This document shows positions 1 through 16,970 of a stretch of DNA of 16,970 nucleotides, piece by piece. Source of the DNA: a virus (lineage: Duplodnaviria > Heunggongvirae > Uroviricota > Caudoviricetes); the IMG/VR virus record IMGVR_UViG_2925903241_000002; one strand, written 5' to 3'. The notes under the pieces are model-generated. The model was not told the origin of the DNA and ran no database searches. It saw only the letters and a program-made list of their open reading frames with translations. Made by a program: the position numbers and the translations under genes. Each line of letters begins with the position of its first letter. Within the stretch, counting starts at the first letter, position 1.

Positions 1-1263
1 ATGAAACTCAACGCTCGCCAGATAGAGACCGCAAAGCCGAAAGAGAAAGCTTATAAAATGGCTGATGGAGGCGGTTTGTATCTTGAGGTCTCCCCTAAAG
101 GTTCTAAGTACTGGCGCATGAAATATCGCCGCCCCTCTGACAAAAAGGAAGATCGACTCGCTTTTGGTGTATACCCGACGGTCACTTTGGCTGAAGCGCG
201 GGGTAAGCGCGATGCAGCAAAGAAATTGTTGTCTCAGGGTATTGACCCCAAAGCTGAGCAAAAGGGGGCACAAGCTGAAATTGAGGGGGCATATTTATTT
301 GAAACTATCGCAAGGCAATGGCACGCAAGTAACCTTACTTGGAGCGAAGATCATAGCCGTCGTGTTCTGCTGACACTTGAGCAGTATATTTTCCCCTCGA
401 TAGGTCAAATCGATGCCAGAACGTTGAGAACCAGCCAGCTTCTCAATCCAATCAAAGCTGTCGATACGGCGGGTAAACATGATGTCGCGCAGCGACTGAT
501 GCAGCGCGTAACCGCAATTATGCGTTTTGGTGTGCAGAATGACCTCCTTGAATCAAATCCTGCATGCGATATGGCTGGAGCGCTTTTAAGCGTTAAAGCA
601 ACCCACCACCCAGCACTACCCCCAAAAAGAATCCCTGAGCTTCTTGAAAGACTATCACGCTATAAAGGGCGACTAATGACACGGCTTGCCGTTGAATTAA
701 CGCTACTCACATTTATACGTTCAAGTGAGATGCGTTTTGCTCGCTGGAGTGAGGTTAACTTTGAACGAAGCGAGTGGACAATACCCGGAATTCGTAAGCC
801 TATTCCCGGCGTAAAACACTCTGAGCGTGGGATGAAGATGAAAACTGAACATATTGTTCCGCTTAGCAAACAAGCATTTGATATTTTTAAACGTTTACAT
901 GCCTTGAGTGGTAAAGGTGAGGTTATATTTCCCAGCGATCATGATCCTAAAAAAGTAATGAGTGAAAATACAGTAAATAACGCCTTACGTGTAATGGGAT
1001 ATGATACGAAAACTGAAGTATGTGGTCATGGGTTTAGAACTATGGCGCGTGGTGCGCTAAGTGAGTCGAAACTATGGAATGATGATGCCATTGAAAGACA
1101 GTTAAGCCACGTTGAACGAAAAAATGTGAAAGGTTCATATATGCATACTTCCGAATATCTTGAAGAAAGAAGATTAATGCTGCAGTGGTGGGCTGATTAT
1201 ATTGATGCTAATAAGAATGGATCTGTCACACCATATGATTTTGCGCGTATGCATGGAAAATAA
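1..1263 (+). CDS. int: P4-type tyrosine integrase (site-specific recombinase); window starts at its ATG, so the attachment site, presumably a tRNA/tmRNA 3' end, lies upstream and out of view
   Basis: 420-aa ORF with the typical P4-integrase N-terminus (AKPKEKAYKMADGGGLYLEVSPKGSKYWRMKYR) and a catalytic-domain-like C-terminus (HGFRTMARGALSE ... SYMHTSEY). Family assignment is from motif recognition, not a search. Confidence 0.9.
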   Translation: MKLNARQIETAKPKEKAYKMADGGGLYLEVSPKGSKYWRMKYRRPSDKKEDRLAFGVYPTVTLAEARGKRDAAKKLLSQGIDPKAEQKGAQAEIEGAYLFETIARQWHASNLTWSEDHSRRVLLTLEQYIFPSIGQIDARTLRTSQLLNPIKAVDTAGKHDVAQRLMQRVTAIMRFGVQNDLLESNPACDMAGALLSVKATHHPALPPKRIPELLERLSRYKGRLMTRLAVELTLLTFIRSSEMRFARWSEVNFERSEWTIPGIRKPIPGVKHSERGMKMKTEHIVPLSKQAFDIFKRLHALSGKGEVIFPSDHDPKKVMSENTVNNALRVMGYDTKTEVCGHGFRTMARGALSESKLWNDDAIERQLSHVERKNVKGSYMHTSEYLEERRLMLQWWADYIDANKNGSVTPYDFARMHGK

Positions 1264-3853: not shown

Positions 3854-4233
3854 ACCAGCCGCAGGTTTCCATTTTCCCGGCAGAAATGACCACCGCGCTT
3901 TACCGGCGGGCTATTGCTTCAGCATGGCGGCAGAAAATGCTGAACGAAACTGGCAGTGATCAGTATGGTCCGCACAGCCTGACGGTGGAGCGTATTGAAA
4001 TGGCCATTGCGCTGCATATCGAGTGCGTACTGATTAACGAGTACGGCGAAGCACAGGGCGCCGCTGCCGCGCTGGCACTGCTGACTGACATGCTGGAGCC
4101 GTCACTGCTGACCGCGCCGCCGGTACTGACCGCGCGCGGCTGTGAAGTGATGGCGGAGATGTACCGCACGCTTCCGGCGGCCTTTGATGACTTCTGCAGT
4201 ACCGGTGTGACGTTGTATCAGGGGGAAGTATGA
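3850..4233 (+). CDS. hypothetical protein
   Basis: GAAGGAGG upstream; 127 aa; translationally coupled to both neighbours through ATGA overlaps at 3850 and 4230. Confidence 0.6.
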   Translation: MNQPQVSIFPAEMTTALYRRAIASAWRQKMLNETGSDQYGPHSLTVERIEMAIALHIECVLINEYGEAQGAAAALALLTDMLEPSLLTAPPVLTARGCEVMAEMYRTLPAAFDDFCSTGVTLYQGEV

Positions 4234-6902
4234 CAATACAGACGGTTACGCAGATTTCAGCCGCCGCACGGGGGAAATGGCCCGTTATTCTCCAGATGCT
4301 GCGTATTGATGTACCTGAAAACGGCAGGCACGGTCCCTGCCCGAAATGTGGGGGCAAGGATCGTTTTCGCCTTGATGACCTTGACGGGCGCGGGACGTGG
4401 ATCTGCAGCCAGTGTGGCAATGGTGACGGTCTGGATCTGGTTAAGCTCGTAACCGGTTACAGCGTCAGAAAGGCTGCGCAGGAGGTGGCGCAGGTGCTTA
4501 ATGTGCCGGATGTGCAGGAACTGCCTGTTAAGCCTGCCAGAAAAAAAGCCCCTAAACGCGACATGGGTCTTACCGTGGCGGCGCTGATGAAAGAGAGCCA
4601 CACGGGAGAAAGCGCCTATCTGACAGGAAAAGGGTTCGCCGGATACCCGGCCTCTCTGACCGGAAGCGTGCAGCATATCAGCGGTAAGGATTTTCCTGCC
4701 GGTTCCCTGCTGTTACCACTCACGACCAACACCGGAGCCGTGACTGGTGCACAGCTTATCGCCCCGACGGGTGAAAAAAGCATACTGCCCGGCAGCACGA
4801 TGAAAGGCGCGTTTGTGTCGCTCAGCCCGTTACCGTCTGAACCACCGGTACAGGTGGTGATTACCGAAGGTTACGCTACGGCGCTGACGGTAAGTCAGCT
4901 CACTGCCGGATGCGTAGTGGCTGCCATATCTGCGGGCAACCTGCCCAATGTGGCGCAGTCGCTGCGGGCACGCTGGCCTGAGGTAAAAATTATCATCGCC
5001 GGTGATAACGATTTTCAGGACGGGGGTGAGAATCCCGGCAGAGCCTTTGCTGAACGGGCGGCAAAAGCTGTTGGCGGCTGGATGACGCTGCCACCGGGAG
5101 AGATTAAGGCCGACTGGAATGACTTCCATCGGGAGCACGGTATTACCCGCGCCCGTGAAGCCTTTCGTAACGGTCTGGTGCTGTGCGGGGAGGGCCGCAC
5201 GCAACTGCCGCACGGGTTCCGTCTTACCCAGGAATATCTCTGGTATGAAAAGCAGGTACAGCGCAACGGTGAGACGGAGATCCAGAACGTCAAAATATGC
5301 AGCCCGCTGCGCGTGACGGCAATCACCTGCGATGCCGATGGCGGTAACTTCGGACGACTGCTGGAATGGGAAGATACGTGGGGTGAGTGTCGCCGCTGGG
5401 CGATGCCGATGGAAATGCTGAGCGGCAGTGGTGAGGAACTGCGCCGGGTATTGCTGGTTAACGGGCTGTCTTATATCAGCACCACCGGTGAGGCACGCGC
5501 ACGCCTGATGGAATATATCTCACTGTGTAAACCGGAACGCCGCGTGACCTGCGTCAGTCGTACTGGCTGGCATGGTCAGGTTTACGTCCTGCAGGATGAG
5601 GTCAGCGGTGAAGGTGCAGAGGGTGTCATTCTCCAGACCACTTCCGTGCAGGGGCGTGATTTCCGCGTGTCGGGCACAACAGAGGAATGGCGGGAGCATG
5701 TATCCCGCTACTGTACCGGCAACTCCCGCGTGGCATTTGCTGTCAGCCTGGCCTTTGCTGCACCACTGTTACGGCTGGTTGGTATGGACGGCGGCGGCTA
5801 CCACCTCAAAGGGGAATCGACAGACGGTAAGACCACCACCATGAAAGCGGCAACCTCCGTCTGCGGCGGGCCTGACTACTGGCAGACATGGCGGGCCACC
5901 GGCAACGCGCTGGAGGGATGCGCCAGCCGCCGCAACGATGCCGCCATGATGCTTGATGAGATCCGGGAAGTTGACGGACGCGAGGCAGGCAATATCGCCT
6001 ACATGCTGGCAAACGGTCAGGGCAAGGGCCGTGCCGGTACGGACGGTGAGCTGCGTACCCGTAAGCATTGGCGCCTGTTGTTCTTTTCAACTGGCGAGTT
6101 GTCTCTGACCGAACATGCGGCAAAGGCCGGTGAGCGTACTTTTGCCGGGATGGAAGTCAGGATGATCCAGATCCCCAGCGATTCCGGGAAGTTTGGCGTT
6201 TTTGAGGAGCTGCACGGCTTCGACAGCGGCAAGGCTCTGGCAGAGCATCTTGAATGGGCCACGTCCTGCTACTACGGTTCGCCGTTCCGGGAGTGGCTGA
6301 AAGCACTGACCGCTGATCTTAACGGACTAACGGCACAGGCAAAATCGCTGATGAAGGAATATGCTGCCGCCCTGACTCCGAAAGATGCAGGCAATCAGGT
6401 GGGCCGGGCTGTGAACCGCTTTGCTCTGGTGGCGATGGCAGGTGAACTGGCAACCCGTCTGGGTATCACCGGCTGGCCTGAGGGTGAAGCACTGCGGGCA
6501 ACCCGCGTCTGCCTGAACGCATGGCTGAAAGATCGCGGGCACACCGCCAATCAGGAAGATATCGCCGCACTGGAGCAGGTTCGCAGTTTCTTTACCGCGA
6601 ATCAGTACAGCCGCTTTGCAGACTGGTATGACGAGCGCAACCGCCCCGGCAATATGGTGGGCTGGCGCAGGGTGGAGAAAGGCAGTACCGCGCAGGGCAC
6701 GGAAGCTGTCACTACGTTCTATGTCATGCCGTCCGGCTGGAAAGAAATCTGCAGGGGATTTGACCCGCGCAAGGTGGCGCGTCTGTGCGCAGATCGTGGA
6801 TACCTGCTGCCCTCCACTGATGGCAAACTCCAGACAACCATTCGCCCGCCAGAGATGAATCCCCGCAGGCTCTATGTCTTCAACAGCGAGGTGCCGGGTT
6901 AA
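4230..6902 (+). CDS. P4 alpha-like primase-helicase (zinc-binding domain, Toprim, P-loop NTPase)
   Basis: 890 aa. N-terminal CPKCGG...CSQCGNGDG zinc ribbon; Toprim-like EGYATALT ... IIAGDNDF; Walker A GESTDGKTT; GGGGAAG RBS. Confidence 0.9.
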   Translation: MTIQTVTQISAAARGKWPVILQMLRIDVPENGRHGPCPKCGGKDRFRLDDLDGRGTWICSQCGNGDGLDLVKLVTGYSVRKAAQEVAQVLNVPDVQELPVKPARKKAPKRDMGLTVAALMKESHTGESAYLTGKGFAGYPASLTGSVQHISGKDFPAGSLLLPLTTNTGAVTGAQLIAPTGEKSILPGSTMKGAFVSLSPLPSEPPVQVVITEGYATALTVSQLTAGCVVAAISAGNLPNVAQSLRARWPEVKIIIAGDNDFQDGGENPGRAFAERAAKAVGGWMTLPPGEIKADWNDFHREHGITRAREAFRNGLVLCGEGRTQLPHGFRLTQEYLWYEKQVQRNGETEIQNVKICSPLRVTAITCDADGGNFGRLLEWEDTWGECRRWAMPMEMLSGSGEELRRVLLVNGLSYISTTGEARARLMEYISLCKPERRVTCVSRTGWHGQVYVLQDEVSGEGAEGVILQTTSVQGRDFRVSGTTEEWREHVSRYCTGNSRVAFAVSLAFAAPLLRLVGMDGGGYHLKGESTDGKTTTMKAATSVCGGPDYWQTWRATGNALEGCASRRNDAAMMLDEIREVDGREAGNIAYMLANGQGKGRAGTDGELRTRKHWRLLFFSTGELSLTEHAAKAGERTFAGMEVRMIQIPSDSGKFGVFEELHGFDSGKALAEHLEWATSCYYGSPFREWLKALTADLNGLTAQAKSLMKEYAAALTPKDAGNQVGRAVNRFALVAMAGELATRLGITGWPEGEALRATRVCLNAWLKDRGHTANQEDIAALEQVRSFFTANQYSRFADWYDERNRPGNMVGWRRVEKGSTAQGTEAVTTFYVMPSGWKEICRGFDPRKVARLCADRGYLLPSTDGKLQTTIRPPEMNPRRLYVFNSEVPG

Positions 6903-6936: not shown

Positions 6937-7124
6937 GGTGAAACAGGTGGAACAACCGTATTTTACAGGGCTGAACCTGTTCCACCTTCTGAAATAGTGA
7001 GGTGGAACAGATGTAACGCCAGCCAATCCGCTGTTCCACCTTGTTACCCGCGATGTTCCACCGGTGCAGTGTATATAAATGCCTTATAAAACAAAGCTGT
7101 AACACATGTTTCACCTGTTCCACC
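6937..7124. repeat. iteron cluster: eight copies of TGTTCCACC or its variant TGTTTCACC in both orientations; candidate alpha-binding cis replication region (crr/ori-like)
   Basis: Forward copies at 6978-6986, 7032-7040, 7054-7062, 7107-7115 (variant) and 7116-7124; reverse copies at 6937-6945 (variant), 6946-6954 and 7001-7009. The cluster lies directly downstream of the primase gene. P4 ori and crr carry the similar octamer TGTTCACC, as I recall it. Confidence 0.6.
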
Positions 7125-7212
7125 GCATCAGGGACATAAAGCAGACTGAAACAGAGGGCATTTTTATCTGGCTGGCTTTCATAGCCACGTCTGAATAACC
7201 GCAAGCGTCCGT

Positions 7213-7302: not shown

Positions 7303-8046
7303 ATGAACAACACCGCAGTGAATAACAACCTTTCCACTTTTCCGGCTGTAACGCAGCGGGCACTGGAAACCATGAACACAGCCAGAAACGCATGGCTTGA
7401 AGCACGTCGTCAGCAGAAAGCGGCAGCGGATAATATTGCGACAATCCGCCAGCGTCGCGCTGAAATGGAAGCCACGACGAACACACTGAATGAGGAGTGG
7501 CGCACGCTGTTTCGTGAAAGTCAGGGCGTGGTCTCAAAGGAAATGAAAAAACTGCGCACGGAAATTGCGCTGGGACGAGAAACGCTTGAGGATTTTGATG
7601 AGCTGCTGGCGGCTCAGGAAAGCGAAAATGCACTTTTGCCGCAGAAAGCTGCAGAATTAGCCGGAAAGTATATCCACGCGCATAACATTCTTGTGGATAT
7701 TCGCGCAAAACAAATCTGGGAGGATTTTATGCAGTCGCATGGAAAAGCGCTTATTCAGACGCTGAGCCTGCTTAAATCCACAATGGGCCGGGAAGCCAGT
7801 GCCGTTGTGGGTGTGGTGAATTCAGTTAATGACCCGGACACAGTGCTGAAAGACTTTATTCATAAACATATCACCAGACCGGCTCTGGCTAACGATGCGA
7901 TGCCTGAGCAGGACCCGGTGTTTAAACTGGCGGGAGTTGCCCCGGATTATGCGGCGCGTCTGGATTTCAGTAATCAACTCTCTCCGGCAGCTATGCATAA
8001 AATTAAGGTTCGTCAGGAACTTGCTGAGAAGGAGAAAGCAGTATGA
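7303..8046 (+). CDS. sid: Sid-like capsid size determination (external scaffold) protein
   Basis: 247 aa, helical and Ala/Glu-rich. Position after alpha and before psu matches P4. The segment EEWRTLFRESQGVVSKEMKKLR resembles my recollection of P4 Sid. Confidence 0.7.
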   Translation: MNNTAVNNNLSTFPAVTQRALETMNTARNAWLEARRQQKAAADNIATIRQRRAEMEATTNTLNEEWRTLFRESQGVVSKEMKKLRTEIALGRETLEDFDELLAAQESENALLPQKAAELAGKYIHAHNILVDIRAKQIWEDFMQSHGKALIQTLSLLKSTMGREASAVVGVVNSVNDPDTVLKDFIHKHITRPALANDAMPEQDPVFKLAGVAPDYAARLDFSNQLSPAAMHKIKVRQELAEKEKAV

Positions 8047-8594
8047 CGGCCCGAGGCACGCCTGACCAGGCACTTACCAGTTTTCGGAATGCCCGTATTC
8101 TGTGGGCCGGACATAATGAGAGCCGAAAAGCCGTTGAACAACAGATAACATCTCTCCTCGCTGCCACAGAAAAACCAGCAGATTATGCCCGACAGCTCGA
8201 ATTACTGCGGGAACGTCTGGATGTGCTGAAATGGCAAATTAACTGTGCTGCGCGCGAATGCATTTACTCGCAGCATTTACTGATGGAGGCCTGCACAGAA
8301 GCCGCTCTCAGCAATTTTATGCAGGCGAATGGGGCAGCCCTGACATCTGCACTGGCTCCGTTCCTGAAGGGGCGCGGAGGGGTTGACGTTGCGTCCCGTA
8401 TATTACGCAGTGCTCTGGTTCGCCAGCTGGCAATAACACCGCCTGAAATTGCCGGGGATTATCGTGAGATCCTGGATGAATCCGGTTTGATGCCTGACCC
8501 CGGGATGATTCGTGATTGCCAGGGTTCTTACACCCCGGCACAACATCTGCGTTTTCAGCAACGCCTGAATGACATTAACGATATACAGGAGTGA
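8043..8594 (+). CDS. psu: Psu-like polarity suppression / capsid decoration protein
   Basis: 183 aa with an ATGA overlap to sid. The segments LKWQINCAARECIYSQHLL, FMQANGAALTSALAPFL and YTPAQHLRFQQRLN resemble recalled P4 Psu motifs. Confidence 0.7.
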   Translation: MTARGTPDQALTSFRNARILWAGHNESRKAVEQQITSLLAATEKPADYARQLELLRERLDVLKWQINCAARECIYSQHLLMEACTEAALSNFMQANGAALTSALAPFLKGRGGVDVASRILRSALVRQLAITPPEIAGDYREILDESGLMPDPGMIRDCQGSYTPAQHLRFQQRLNDINDIQE

Positions 8595-8599
8595 TATTA

Positions 8600-8872
8600 A
8601 TGGCACTTAAATGTCCGGAATGCGGTACAGTTGCACACGCCAGAACAGCAGCCTATGAAGCTCCGTCAGTTAAACGCTCGTGGTATCAGTGCCAGAATCT
8701 GGAATGTTCCTGCACATTTACGGCACTGGAGAGTGTGGATAAGATAATCATGAAACCCCGGCGCAATGAACAGCTATCAGACAAAGCACAATCCCCGGAA
8801 AAACAACAGAAAACGCTCAATCGCTATGGCTCCGCGTCAAAACTGTCAAGCCGTCAGCAGATTCCTGTCTGA
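8600..8872 (+). CDS. Ogr/Delta-family zinc-finger late transcription activator
   Basis: C-x2-C-x22-C-x4-C (CPECG ... CQNLECSC) at the N-terminus; GGAG 8 nt before the ATG at 8600. The in-frame GTG at 8591 is less likely. Confidence 0.85.
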   Translation: MALKCPECGTVAHARTAAYEAPSVKRSWYQCQNLECSCTFTALESVDKIIMKPRRNEQLSDKAQSPEKQQKTLNRYGSASKLSSRQQIPV

Positions 8873-8892
8873 TTAGAAAGAACGCCCACGTA

Positions 8893-8919
8893 ATCCCGGT
8901 CCAGTACCGGGATTTTTTA
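8893..8919 (+). terminator. rho-independent terminator of the sid-psu-ogr late operon
   Basis: Stem ATCCCGGT / ACCGGGAT (8 bp), loop CCAGT, followed by TTTTTT. Confidence 0.7.
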
Positions 8920-9244
8920 CCCCCTTTTCCTGGCTGACATGAGAGCGCATGAGTGCATGTCTATGGCGCATGAAAACGCATGAGTCTTATGCACCATTTT
9001 TGACGAGAAAACCCTTGTGTGCTGGCTTCTGAGACGATTAATGAGGTGCATGAAAACCAGTCTGTTAAGCGAAGCGGGCAGGCGTGCGGGGCTGCCCGCA
9101 CTAACGGTGATAATTGTGATGTTGCGATATCAAGAGAGATATAAGAATGCTGTATTCAATAAGGTATTGCTTTCAATTGTTAGATTTATTTTTGTTTAAA
9201 TGTCAATGGTTTAGGTGGTTGCTGGCAGCCAGTACGCTTACTTA

Positions 9245-9272
9245 TTGAAAATCTCGCATCTTTTGCTATCCT
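9245..9272 (+). promoter_or_regulatory. candidate sigma70 promoter for the retron ncRNA/operon
   Basis: TTGAAA at 9245-9250, 16-nt spacer, TATCCT at 9267-9272, directly upstream of the structured ncRNA region. Confidence 0.35.
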
Positions 9273-9274
9273 AA

Positions 9275-9450
9275 CCCTACCTTTACGCGCGGGATAACAG
9301 GTTTATCCTTGTCGGGCGTTTCGCCAGACACTAATTTATTGTGGACATTTAGGGTTGCGCTTTAGCACTTTCAGCAAGATCCTTCATGCCACTGCGTTCC
9401 ATTCAGGATCTTGCTGAAAGTCTAAAGCGCATCCTTTAGGTAAAGGGGTC
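9275..9450 (+). ncRNA. retron msr-msd-like non-coding RNA (ends approximate)
   Basis: Two short hairpins (GGATAA-CAGGT-TTATCC at 9292-9308; GGCG-TTT-CGCC at 9315-9325), then a long imperfect inverted repeat: GCGCTTTAGCACTTTCAGCAAGATCC at 9357-9382 pairing with GGATCTTGCTGAAAGTCTAAAGCGC at 9406-9430 (one mismatch, about 22-nt loop). CCTTTAC at 9279 and GTAAAGG at 9440 are candidate a1/a2. It sits immediately upstream of an effector-RT gene pair. Confidence 0.6.
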
Positions 9451-9499
9451 GAAGGTGGCTGGTTAGCCACCTTTTCTTTTGGAGTAGGGGGTCACAAGG

Positions 9500-10486
9500 G
9501 TGAGTGATTCTGCATATATGAATGCATTACAAGAGCAGTTTGGAGATTTGAAATATTCAAATTTCACTGTTCAGTTCATGCCTCCTATTATTTTTGTTTG
9601 TGGTGGGCCGATAAATTCCACTCCAATGAGTGTACGAGACCACATATTTACTTATGTAGCAGGCCACAAACCTGAATTGTCAGATTCTCTTATTTTAGCT
9701 GAGAACTTCCATGACTACTTCAGAGAGGGGGCATATTCAGATCTAATGAGCTTTGAAGATGATATTGCAAATATTTCAACATTAGTTGTTATCTGTTTAG
9801 AAAGTGCAGGTTCGTTAGTTGAGCTTGGATTATTTGTTAATAGGAAGTCTCTAGCTCAAAAATTGCATGTAGTCGCACCATTTGAGGAGATTGAGGGAAA
9901 TGAACGAAAAAATATTCCTGCTAGATCTTCTTTTATATATTTAGGCCCTTTGGAGTATCTTAAAAAAATAGATGAGGCCTCAGTATCAGTTTATCCATGG
10001 CCAAAATCGGATCGTATGAAATATGATGAGGTTGAGCTTATCTACCATGATATTCATTCTAGATTAAAACGTGTAAAAAAAACGGAGCGATATAACCCTG
10101 AAAATACTGGGCACCTAGCTATATTGATTTACGAAATAATCCTTTTATCAGAACCAATCAAGAAAAGCGAAATAGAGTGGGCACTATACTGTATGGATAT
10201 AGATGTGCCACAAAAAATAATAACTCGTTTACTTTATTTGCTTGAAAAGATGAAATTAACCTCATCATTATCTTACAGTGGTACAGACTACTTCTATTCC
10301 CGAGGGCATAGAGAGAGTAAACTTAAATTTGGTATCAGTGCTAGTGGTAAAATAAAGGATTCTATGAATATTAAGGTTGCAATCCGACAATCTTACTTAA
10401 GTATGGATGCTAAAGATATGGACGAGACTGCAAAAAAAAGGAAAAATGCTCTAAATCAAATCAATATCGTGCGTGGAGGGGCTTAG
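9500..10486 (+). CDS. retron effector candidate: nucleoside 2-deoxyribosyltransferase-like N-terminal domain with a possible winged-helix C-terminal domain
   Basis: 328 aa, AT-rich. PPIIFVCGGP and VVICLESAGSLVELGLF resemble the NDT/Rossmann-like fold with a conserved Glu. The start is uncertain: GTG at 9500 or ATG at 9518, neither with a strong SD. The stop lies 1 nt before the RT start. Confidence 0.65.
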   Translation: MSDSAYMNALQEQFGDLKYSNFTVQFMPPIIFVCGGPINSTPMSVRDHIFTYVAGHKPELSDSLILAENFHDYFREGAYSDLMSFEDDIANISTLVVICLESAGSLVELGLFVNRKSLAQKLHVVAPFEEIEGNERKNIPARSSFIYLGPLEYLKKIDEASVSVYPWPKSDRMKYDEVELIYHDIHSRLKRVKKTERYNPENTGHLAILIYEIILLSEPIKKSEIEWALYCMDIDVPQKIITRLLYLLEKMKLTSSLSYSGTDYFYSRGHRESKLKFGISASGKIKDSMNIKVAIRQSYLSMDAKDMDETAKKRKNALNQINIVRGGA

Positions 10487-10487
10487 A

Positions 10488-11420
10488 ATGGAGTTGCTAA
10501 GTTATATTTCAAAAGGTCTTTTTCTTAGCGAAGAAGAGGCTAAAAGGTATATTGTTACTATTCCACGCAGATATAAAATTTATCCTATCGCCAAAAGAAA
10601 TGGTAATGGATATAGATTAATTGCACAACCAGCTAGGCAAGTTAAAGCCTTACAGAAGGTAGTAATCAATCATATGTTGGCTAATTTGAAAGTTCATGAA
10701 AATGCTTTCGCTTATGAAGCCGATAAAAGTATTAGATCTAATGCGTTAATGCATTGTAATAATGATTATTTGCTTAAAATGGATTTTAAAAACTTTTTTA
10801 TGAGTATCAAACCCCATAATCTTTTATCTGTCTTAAAAGATTATGGCGTTGAACTAACTGATACTGATATCTTTGTTCTTAAAAATCTTTTCTTCTGGAA
10901 GTTAAGAAGAAATAGCCCGTTACGCCTAAGTGTTGGAGCACCTTCTTCTCCCATTATTTCAAATACAGTAATGTATTTCTTCGATGAGGAAATATCGAAA
11001 AGATGCAAGGATTTGGGTATTACCTACTCAAGGTATGCTGATGATCTTACGTTTAGCACCAAAGTCAAAGGAGCTTTATTTGATGTTCCTAAGTTAGTAA
11101 GGGAAGTTCTTAACGTAGTAAATCTTAGGAATATTAAAATAAACCATGAGAAAACAGTTTTTACCTCAAGGAAGTTTAATAGACATGTAACTGGTGTAAC
11201 TATTACGACTGATGGTTATTTGTCTTTAGGTCGTGATAGAAAGCGTCTTTTAAGAAGTAAAATACATTATTATGTGTGTGGGGTTTTATCTGAGAAAGAA
11301 ATTCTAACCCTTAAAGGAGAATTAGGCTATGCGAAATTTATTGAACATAAATTCTTTGCCTCCATGATTAAGAAATATGGGGATGATGTAATCAGCGAAA
11401 TTTCAAAATATGAAATTTAA
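10488..11420 (+). CDS. retron-type reverse transcriptase
   Basis: GGAGG 8 nt upstream of the ATG at 10488. RT motifs are present: IYPIAKRNGNGYRLIAQP (motifs 1-2), LKMDFKNFFMSI (3), SVGAPSSPIISN (4), YSRYADDLTFS (5, YADD). NRHVTGVTI carries the retron-characteristic VTG motif, and about 310 aa is typical retron RT size. Confidence 0.85.
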   Translation: MELLSYISKGLFLSEEEAKRYIVTIPRRYKIYPIAKRNGNGYRLIAQPARQVKALQKVVINHMLANLKVHENAFAYEADKSIRSNALMHCNNDYLLKMDFKNFFMSIKPHNLLSVLKDYGVELTDTDIFVLKNLFFWKLRRNSPLRLSVGAPSSPIISNTVMYFFDEEISKRCKDLGITYSRYADDLTFSTKVKGALFDVPKLVREVLNVVNLRNIKINHEKTVFTSRKFNRHVTGVTITTDGYLSLGRDRKRLLRSKIHYYVCGVLSEKEILTLKGELGYAKFIEHKFFASMIKKYGDDVISEISKYEI

Positions 11421-11690
11421 TAGCTTGTTGTCCTAATAAATCAGCATGACTTTATCTAGCTTGCGCAAGGTTGGTTCAGAGGTTTGGTTGTTCTGGTTAG
11501 GCTCTGTAAGACGGAACCTAACTAGGCAACTCTATCTTGCTAATTCATTTATTGTGCTAGTTAGCAACAATAAGATTTTGTTGGGGGCACAAAATGGGGC
11601 ACAAGTCATAAGCTATAAAATTTTTATCATCATGTTCAATGAGTTATATAGTTATTCTATTCCGGCCTTCGCACCATCGGAACATCAATA

Positions 11691-11713
11691 GACGTCAACG
11701 GACGTCTTTTTTT
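11691..11713 (+). terminator. rho-independent terminator closing the retron module
   Basis: GACGTC-AACG-GACGTC hairpin followed by TTTTTTT. Confidence 0.7.
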
Positions 11714-11874
11714 GTGCCTAAAATCCAGTATCCGCAAGGCTTTCCTCGCTTTTTCACTCAACCTAAGTCAACCTGATTCAATCTACATCAACTTACTGAT
11801 GCGGGTACAACTGCGGGTATTTCCCGGTTCGATAATGTTTGTACCCACACAGAACCCTTGAAAGGATACTCATC

Positions 11875-12976
11875 ATGGCTCTGAGTGATGTGAAGGTTCG
11901 TTCGGCTAAGCCTGAAGCAAAAGCCTATAAGCTGACCGACGGTGAAGGCATGGTTTTGCTGGTTCACCCTAACGGCTCCAAATACTGGCGGCTACGTTAT
12001 CGCTTTGGCGGTAAAGAGAAGATGCTGGCATTGGGGAAATACCCCGAAGTGTCGTTGGCGGATGCCAGGGCACGCCGGGATGAGGCTCGTAAGCTTTTAG
12101 CTAATGGTGTCGATCCCAGTGAAAACAAGAAAGCTGTTAAGGTAGAACAGGAACAAGAGGCGATAACGTTGAAGTAGTCGCCAGAGACTGGCACGCCAGC
12201 AATCAGAAGTGGTCGGCATCGCATAGCGCTCGTGTTTTGAAAAGTCTGGAGGATAATCTCTTTACTGCTATCGGTAAGCGGAACATTGCGGAACTGAAGA
12301 CGCGGGATCTTCTTGTACCCATTAAAGCAGTCGAGTCATCCGGGCGGCTCGAAGTTGCCGCCCGTTTACAGCAGCGTACTACCGCGATTATGCGCTTTGC
12401 CGTTCAGAGCGGCTTAATCGACTACAACCCCGCGCAAGAGATTGCAGGTGCGGTTGCTACGGCGAAAAGACAGCACCGTGCAGCTCTTGAACTGAACCGT
12501 ATACCTGAATTACTTCATCGCATAGATCACTATTCTGGCAGACCGTTAACTCGGCTGGCGGTTGAACTCACTTTATTGGTTTTCATCCGTTCGAGCGAGC
12601 TGCATTTTGCCCGCTGGTCAGAAGTAGATTTTGAAACGGCTATGTGGACAATCCCAGGTGAGCGTGAGCAACTGGAAGGAGTCAAGCATTCTCAGCGTGG
12701 CTCGAAGATGCGGACACCACACCTTGTGCCTTTGTCGCGGCAGGCCCTAAGTATTTTGGAAAAGATCAAAAGCATGAGCGGAAATTGAGAGCTGATTTTT
12801 GTGGGCGATCACGATCCACGTAAGCCGATGAGTGAGAATACGGTGAACAAGGCTTTGCGCGTAATGGGGTATGACACGAAGGTCGAGGTTTGTGGGCATG
12901 GCTTCAGGACGATGGCTTGTAGTTCGTTGATTGAGTCGGGATTATGGTCGAGGGATGCGGTAGAGCGGCAGATGAG
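11875..12976 (+). pseudogene. second P4-type integrase, inactivated by a frameshift, a nonsense codon and 3' truncation by the IS element
   Basis: AAGGA RBS and ATG at 11875. The translation parallels the first integrase across three frames: a frame break near 12160-12177, an in-frame TGA at 12786-12788 where the first integrase has Gly, and an end at the IS inverted repeat at 12977. Confidence 0.8.
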
Positions 12977-13018
12977 TGAACCGCCCCGGGTTTCCTGGAG
13001 AGTGTTTTATCTGTGAAC

Positions 13019-15761
<2,743 letters not shown>

Positions 15762-16175
15762 CGTAAGTAAAATCAGCCACCCACAGCTGGTCAGGTCGTT
15801 CTGCCACGAACTGACGGTTTACGCGGTCGCCTGCGGCAACGGCTTTCCGGCTGATGGTCGTACGGACCTTTTTACCCCGGAGAACACCGGCAAGTCCCAT
15901 AACCGCCATGAGACGTGCCACAGTGCATCTGGCCACTCTGATACCTTCCCGTAACAACTGACGCCAGACTTTACGCACACCGTATACCTTGTGATTTTCA
16001 TCGTATACGCGCTGTATCTCTTTCTTCAGCCAGTCATCGCGCTGCGCACGGGCACTGCGTTTATCCGGATGATGTCGCTGTTGCTGACAGTGGTAATACG
16101 TTGACGGGGCAATATGCAGTTCGCTGCATAGCGGTCCGACCCCGTACTGCTCACGCAGCTTATCCAGCAGTGGCA

Positions 16176-16179
<4 letters not shown>
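15762..16179 (-). pseudogene. IS3-family transposase OrfB, 5' exon (interrupted by the group II intron after ...LWVADFTY)
   Basis: The reading frame runs into intron sequence (GVPGVQ ...) at 15761; the intron begins GTGTG on the minus strand. Confidence 0.8.

Positions 16180-16970
<791 letters not shown>

Follow-up and report, generated by a model that had tools for sequence, protein, structure and literature searches.

The msr-msd gene of a type II-A retron, almost certainly Retron-Eco9, in a P4-like satellite beside tRNA-Leu

Positions 9245-9482 of the window (the whole 16,970-nt stretch of DNA analysed here) can be assigned with very high confidence to a type II-A (Sen2/St85-like) retron, almost certainly Retron-Eco9, in the hotspot of a P4-like satellite at tRNA-Leu; they make up its promoter, msr-msd gene and terminator. 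The original prediction had put forward 9275-9450 as an msr-msd candidate, and that interpretation is borne out: a retron effector gene and a reverse transcriptase (RT) gene lie directly downstream, Rfam models give weak yet significant matches, helices covary among relatives, and published Eco9 primers bracket the unit. The architecture of the RNA, its covariation, its linkage to an RT family and the identities of the genes are established by computation. The system itself is already known; Retron-Eco9 has been published and, with its Sen2 relatives, studied as a tripartite toxin-antitoxin phage defence, so that the locus has little weight as a discovery. The case does show that a reader given the DNA letters only can recognise a retron ncRNA correctly. 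RefSeq names both protein genes "retron St85 family" and has no msr-msd annotation under the match among the 40 records listed; the coordinates in Table 1, the predicted priming G and the rule of a2-G...a1 plus terminator can be used to annotate the ncRNA gene.

Table 1. Features of the retron locus and its carrier (positions in the window; Eco9 primers placed by mapping)
Feature	Position	Strand	Description
Integrase	1-1263		P4-type gene
Primase	4230-6902		Zn-ribbon, Toprim and DUF927 domains
Sid-like and Psu proteins	7303-8594
Ogr/Delta protein	8591-8872
Promoter-like site	9245-9272	+	-35 TTGAAA 9245-9250, 16-nt spacer, TG-extended -10 TATCCT 9267-9272
a2 arm	9280-9286	+	CCTTTAC; pairs with a1; repeat finder, folding, relatives
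Branching (priming) G, predicted	9287	+	First unpaired base 3' of a2; its 2'-OH would start cDNA synthesis
msr hairpin 1	9291-9309	+	7 bp, 5-nt loop; folding
msr hairpin 2	9310-9330	+	UGUCGGGCG-UUU-CGCCAGACA; 4+4 bp around G.A, UUU loop
Linker	9331-9350	+	CUAAUUUAUUGUGGACAUUU; single-stranded, conserved; alignment A2
msd template stem-loop	9351-9436	+	Core of 25 bp, bulge C9366, loop 9383-9405; msDNA is the complement of the + strand
GATC, left arm	9378-9381	+	Duplex with 9407-9410 makes a full Dam site in the hairpin; sequence
GATC, right arm	9407-9410	+	Dam-site partner; sequence
a1 arm	9440-9446	+	GTAAAGG; pairs with a2; repeat finder, relatives
Intrinsic-terminator-like hairpin	9451-9482	+	10 bp, GGTT loop, then TCTTTT; a few bases 3' of a1
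Effector/toxin gene, RcaT type	9500-10486	+	N-terminal nucleoside-deoxyribosyltransferase-like domain; between a1 and RT
Retron reverse transcriptase gene	10488-11420	+	310 aa
Eco9 msr forward primer	9251-9277		"Start of msr-Eco9"
Eco9 rcaT forward primer	9501-9530
Eco9 "msd(Eco9)" reverse primer	9578-9606		Described as +107 nt of rcaT
Eco9 rcaT reverse primer	10474-10491
Eco9 RT forward primer	10488-10518
Eco9 RT reverse primer	11381-11420
Eco9 retron reverse primer	11443-11466		Just downstream of RT

Architecture and covariation of the msr-msd RNA

The core of the RNA is the 25-bp inverted repeat with a 74-nt span on which the original prediction was built; sequence inspection, a repeat finder and RNA folding all recover it, and it is the longest of the close-spaced inverted repeats in the window. 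Its arms, 9357-9382 and 9406-9430, are as first drawn, with 9357-9365 pairing to 9422-9430 and 9367-9382 to 9406-9421. The single irregularity is a bulged base, C9366, rather than the internal mismatch described earlier, and the loop, earlier put at about 22 nt, is 23 nt long (9383-9405) and has a few weak additional pairs inside. The stem extends outward through 9351-9354 and 9433-9436. RNA folding of 9270-9450 (181 nt), a check proposed with the original prediction, gave -75.1 kcal/mol, far more stable than 200 shuffled sequences (-45.0 ± 4.0 kcal/mol; z = -7.6), none of which equalled it; the complementary DNA strand of the msr-msd stretch folds with z = -11.1. The second-longest inverted repeat of the window is a 20-nt one (6998-7017 / 7108-7127; 85% complementary, 90 nt apart) between the primase and Sid-like genes.

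Two small hairpins had been reported 5' of the long stem, and both are present, as are the flanking arms proposed as a1 and a2. GTAAAGG was correctly placed at 9440, and CCTTTAC starts at 9280, one nucleotide from the 9279 first given; the two arms form a 7-bp helix that covaries in relatives. The branching G, which the original prediction could not fix, is predicted to be G9287 from the rule in relatives that a2 is followed by G, and its counterpart in the Rfam msr model is the G of UUAGCG. A naive stem search scored a G-U-rich alternative, 9259-9267 with 9439-9447, about equal to the 7-bp a2/a1 helix. An a2 arm at 9259-9267 was rejected because it overlaps the -10 element, lies at the wrong distance from msr hairpin 2 for the family, and has no G after it.

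Conservation was assessed in an alignment of 16 sequences (alignment A2) made with MAFFT and analysed with RNAalifold, which recovered msr hairpin 2 and the msd stem. The resulting structure of 35 pairs has compensatory double changes at 17 of them; pairing holds in 95.0% of its cells, whereas shuffles give 77.5 ± 1.1%, with 0 of 500 reaching the observed value, and sliding the partners by one to three columns leaves 33-44%. Its covariation score is 0.415 versus 0.111 in shuffles. The msd stem has compensatory changes at 16 of its 28 pairs, with 93.8% of cells paired. Hairpin 2 is 100% paired in the 16 relatives, with three compensatory and five G-U changes. Hairpin 1, whose sequence and length vary, can still be drawn in the alignment, and its helix lies outside the formal pair count. 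RNAalifold did not predict a2/a1 on this alignment; the helix was tested in each sequence separately because MAFFT had misaligned the TTTAC-G variants relative to the TTTA-G ones.

Several single-stranded and stem segments are conserved as well. Within the linker, alignment A2 shows little or no variation in TTATTG and ATTTAGGG, and ATCCTTTAG (9431-9439), directly 5' of a1, is invariant and is predicted to be the part of the template copied first. The left-arm GATCC is invariant in the 16 relatives; the right arm reads GAGC in most of them, giving a mismatch at the Dam-site adenine. The GATC duplex is perfect in the window and in two relatives (L047 and L086), and a third (L007) also has GATC in its right arm, with a broken pair two positions off. 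The Ec73 RT binds an msr stem of 9 bp with a 3-base loop, according to a review (PMC6868368), and msr hairpin 2 is the probable RT recognition element here.

The compensatory changes bear on whether the repeat could be a structural DNA site of the satellite (cos, att or an origin inverted repeat) rather than an RNA gene. The position would suit such a site, since the late genes and the right end of the element enclose the region and P4 hotspots adjoin cos (PMC9122126). Against it, compensatory changes combined with strand-specific conserved motifs (TTATTG, ATCCTTTAG and the priming G) point to a folded single strand, and the msr-msd element is found outside satellites too. The P2/P4 cos 19-mer had no match within three mismatches anywhere in the window, which also leaves a candidate cos-like site near 9081-9101 unsupported. 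We regard a structural DNA site as extremely unlikely.

Linkage of this RNA to RTs was examined in 40 viral and 80 metagenomic loci, fetched by way of an alignment of RT homologues; counts are given over 121 RT-relative loci. A single-protein scan of genome contigs returned one locus. BLAST of 9270-9480 against the fetched loci found the msr core in nearly all of them. In some it lies about 1.15 kb 5' of the RT, an effector gene intervening, and in others about 0.2 kb 5' of it, where the RNA abuts the RT. The msr hairpin-2 anchor is present in 97 of the 121 loci. A 7-nt a2 ending in TTTA or TTTAC, followed by G, and a perfect 7-bp a1 after the msd occur in 93 of 121, these loci being found by requiring TTTA(C)G and taking the 7 nt before the G as a2. 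The linkage of a2-G...a1 to the RT holds whether an effector gene intervenes or the RNA adjoins the RT directly. Covariation is seen in the arms (CTCTTTA/TAAAGAG, TCCTTTA/TAAAGGA, TTCTTTA/TAAAGAA, ACTTTAC/GTAAAGT, CCTTTAC/GTAAAGG), and the lineage of the window has one extra C in a2 and one extra G in a1, a paired insertion that keeps the helix.

Rfam relatives and transcription signals

At gathering thresholds, Rfam has no match in the msr-msd region. Below them lie two weak matches, to msr and to STnc400, which appear in the right order. RF00170 (Retron msr RNA) matches full-length at 9279-9345 (E = 3.7e-6; 42.2 bits, gathering 52), the outer helix of the model misfitting the window sequence; RF02058 (STnc400) matches full-length at 9350-9486 (E = 5.6e-10; 55.4 bits, gathering 80), with a stem interior that differs in the window, as expected for a variable msd. 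The proposed comparison with covariance models of retron ncRNA families thus returned significant E-values, and both scores fell short of gathering. In Salmonella, STnc400 has been reported as an sRNA located between STM3844 and STM3845, with transcripts of about 55 and 190 nt (PMC2515195). STM3845 is the St85 retron effector, and the corresponding NCBIfam model is named STM3845_fam; STnc400 is therefore in effect the msd and terminator of retron St85.

The sRNA label raises the alternative that the region encodes an ordinary sRNA, or a terminator or attenuator of the late operon of the satellite, with no reverse transcription. The best-matching Rfam family is catalogued as an sRNA with the two transcripts just mentioned, and the window does have a real terminator-like hairpin, in a region downstream of the delta gene. 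Such an sRNA or attenuator is nonetheless scarcely credible: in 93 of 121 loci the RNA accompanies a retron RT, in unrelated settings that include marine metagenomes and a non-P4 island at mnmE, a terminator would have no use for the a2-G...a1 geometry, STnc400 coincides with the St85 msd itself, and the Eco9 msr-msd with its RT yields msDNA experimentally (10.1101/2020.06.22.160168).

Upstream of the msr-msd RNA, 9245-9272 is the one sigma-70-like match in 8850-9560, and shuffled sequences give as many. TTGA and TGnTA recur at equal spacing in six diverged relatives whose flanking sequence is otherwise unalignable. A transcript from this site would start near 9276-9280.

Downstream, the terminator-like hairpin is covered by the 3' hairpin of STnc400. 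Of 85 distinct relatives, 60 have a hairpin with a T-run within 70 nt 3' of a1, the stems being unrelated in sequence; in these related ncRNAs the terminator-like feature, within about 10 nt of a1, separates the ncRNA from the genes for toxin and RT. Because the terminator follows a1, expression of the effector and RT proteins would need read-through. One unlikely extension is that the terminator serves as a dosage device that fixes the ratio of antitoxin to toxin. Most transcripts would then be free msr-msd RNA, the antitoxin precursor, and only read-through transcripts would encode toxin and RT; altered termination would shift the ratio, with Psu or phage takeover of transcription as candidate causes. 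The Psu anti-termination protein is encoded 1 kb upstream in the same satellite. Psu acts on Rho, not on intrinsic terminators.

Retron genes, carrier satellite and the predicted route to msDNA

Both protein genes downstream of the RNA belong to retron families. The effector starts at GTG 9500 in RefSeq, whereas a start at ATG 9518 gives a 322-aa numbering; it scores 223.7 bits with the NCBIfam model NF038232 ("retron St85 family effector"; cut-off 100) and 291 bits with PADLOC NDT_II-A. The RT matches NCBIfam retron_St85_RT (333.8 bits, cut-off 235), PADLOC RT_II-A (401 bits) and Pfam RVT_1 (97 bits), and its translation contains NALMH (the retron NAXXH motif), YADD and VTG, which are retron RT hallmarks (PMC6868368). 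The locus thus combines RT motifs, an adjacent same-strand ncRNA with a2/a1, a G after a2, and a long msd hairpin under selection. In type II-A retrons the gene between msd and RT encodes a nucleoside-deoxyribosyltransferase (NDT)-like effector whose C-terminal part binds DNA (PMC7736814), and the NDT-like effector gene at 9500-10486 occupies that place. Directly after the RT gene is an 81-aa ORF (11446-11691, +) that matches nothing in Pfam, NCBIfam or PADLOC; with the Eco9 cloning primer at 11443-11466 the cloned retron stops where this ORF starts, which places the ORF outside the tested Eco9 system.

By its gene content the window is a P4-like satellite prophage. Many E. coli chromosomes match its retron region at 100% identity, and the msr region (9279-9356) has a match in 157 E. 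coli genomes, with one copy on a plasmid; megablast of the retron region against a phage collection gave no match. At the identical locus of E. coli AR435 the start of the element adjoins tRNA-Leu and ahr. P4-like satellites have a variable defence hotspot adjoining cos that sometimes holds retrons (PMC9122126), and we are highly confident, jointly with the retron identity, that the retron sits in this hotspot of a P4-like satellite next to tRNA-Leu. Strain MFDS1019527 has, next to mnmE, a different and diverged retron of the St85 family (L123). Near the integrase gene, a 212-aa ORF (1293-1931, +) has no match in PADLOC, the sole library with which it was scanned, and is hypothetical in RefSeq.

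The right end of the satellite is expected within about 11692-11838. Immediately 3' of the retron is a second tyrosine integrase gene (11839-13013, +) with an Arm-DNA-binding domain and a partial catalytic domain; it is frameshifted and truncated in RefSeq, is cut off by an IS3 fragment, and looks to be what is left of a further element that integrated in tandem at this tRNA site. Beyond it, a group II intron (13492-15105, -) lies within a broken IS3-family element (flanks 13019-13465 and 15697-16479). Rfam places Intron_gpII domain V/VI at 13492-13578 (64.9 bits); the IS3 frameshift pseudoknot (ALIL, 120 bits) is at 16105-16221. The RT/maturase ORF of the intron (13582-15105, -), frameshifted in RefSeq, is a second, unrelated RT 2 kb from the retron RT.

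The route from RNA to msDNA can be modelled on Eco9 and Sen2, in which the RT takes the msr as primer and the msd as template and RNase H removes the template (10.1101/2020.06.22.160168). In the same study exonuclease VII was reported for Sen2 to cut four nucleotides off the DNA 5' end, releasing unbranched msDNA; Eco9 msDNA production and antitoxin function need RNase H and Exo VII, and the RT-msDNA complex neutralises the RcaT toxin. By analogy, RNA transcribed from about 9278 would fold with a2 paired to a1, so that the end of the msd template faces the 2'-OH of G9287. The RT, recognising msr hairpin 2, would copy leftwards from 9438/9439 through the long hairpin, with RNase H removing the template behind it. 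Synthesis would stop within the linker, near 9338-9340 as judged from the St85 lengths, and trimming of four nucleotides by exonuclease VII would leave an unbranched hairpin ssDNA.

The size of that product was estimated from St85. Positions 1-78 of the STnc400 model (UAGGG...CUAG) correspond to 9350-9439, which is 12 nt longer in the window. On the premise that the 85 nt of St85 is the trimmed product of an 89-nt cDNA, the window would give a cDNA of about 101 nt (the complement of about 9338-9438) and a mature msDNA of about 97 nt, a figure drawn from published lengths and a consensus model that may be several nucleotides off. The exact ends of transcript and msDNA are likewise ones that we infer. 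The predicted msDNA contains a TAGA motif, which is linked to cleavage in relatives.

The RT-msDNA complex would keep the RcaT toxin inactive until phage activities modified or destroyed the msDNA, releasing the toxin and aborting infection. Two such triggers have been described: in Retron-Sen2, methylation by Dam of the GATC duplex that the msDNA hairpin contains, and RecE degradation of msDNA in both Sen2 and Eco9 (10.1101/2020.06.22.160242). Eco9 defends against T7, and the T7 kinase counters Eco9 (PMC13645617).

Identity and comparison with known retrons

The element is very probably Retron-Eco9, recognised indirectly, through cloning primers and four serine residues. The primers are those of Supplementary Table 5 of Bobonis et al. 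[quoted passage not shown] All seven align with the window, and their order and orientation are as expected. Each differs from the window at one to four places; these are gaps of one or two letters, many in single-letter runs, and one substitution. The discrepancies are probably losses in machine reading of the PDF, because real differences of this kind would break reading frames, and the window may be a slightly different allele of Eco9. A 2026 paper names Ser155, Ser181, Ser254 and Ser292 of RcaT-Eco9 (PMC13645617), and counting from ATG 9518 (M7) all four positions are serine in the window, in a protein of which serine makes up about 9%. A full-text literature search with strings of the ncRNA sequence found nothing.

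The original prediction had instead linked the stem-loop to Ec73, on the closeness of its length to a 73-nt msDNA. Retron-Ec73 (Eco3) of retronphage phiR73 shares a good deal with the window: it is a type II-A1 retron, the subtype of the window, with an NDT-like effector (PMC7736814), its genes run msr-msd, effector, RT, and its carrier is a P4-like element. The agreement in length is a coincidence, since the 74 nt are the span of the hairpin and not the length of an msDNA, which is predicted here at about 97 nt against 73 nt for Ec73. In addition, phiR73 sits at the selenocysteine tRNA gene, selC (PMC6868368), whereas the element of the window abuts tRNA-Leu. The window agrees with Eco9 in all seven primers and in four serine positions, and the Ec73 name is absent among the 40 cluster members read. 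The RT of Ec73 presumably also starts differently from that of the window. That the RNA is the msr-msd of Ec73 is accordingly very improbable; the case against Ec73 is indirect, built on site, primers and serines.

Retron-Eco9 (msrmsd-rcaT-rrtT) has the gene order of the window and, like it, a Sen2-like ncRNA, and no difference between the two is established. Eco9 and Sen2 themselves are 49% identical in RT, 43% in RcaT, 85% in msr and 58% in msd (10.1101/2020.06.22.160168).

Retron-Sen2/St85 of Salmonella Typhimurium has the operon layout and the effector and RT families of the window, with a homologous msr, stem base (GGGUUGCGC...GCGC.UCCU.UAG), a1 and terminator. Both have a GATC duplex in the hairpin, and they share the TAGA motif, present here in the predicted msDNA. 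They differ in the interior and loop of the msd stem, in the aligned msd, longer in the window by the 12 nt noted above, and in a2/a1, where Sen2/St85 has TTTA-G and the window TTTAC-G, with one extra C-G pair. The type I-A retrons Ec78, Ec83 and Vc95 have close RTs (about 227 bits to the Ec78 and Ec83 PDB chains and 374 bits to PADLOC RT_I-A for the RT of the window), and their RNA lies directly upstream of the RT, as it does in many of the fetched loci with the msr hairpin. Their effectors, an ATPase and an HNH protein, are encoded downstream of the RT, whereas in the window the NDT-like RcaT is encoded between msd and RT.
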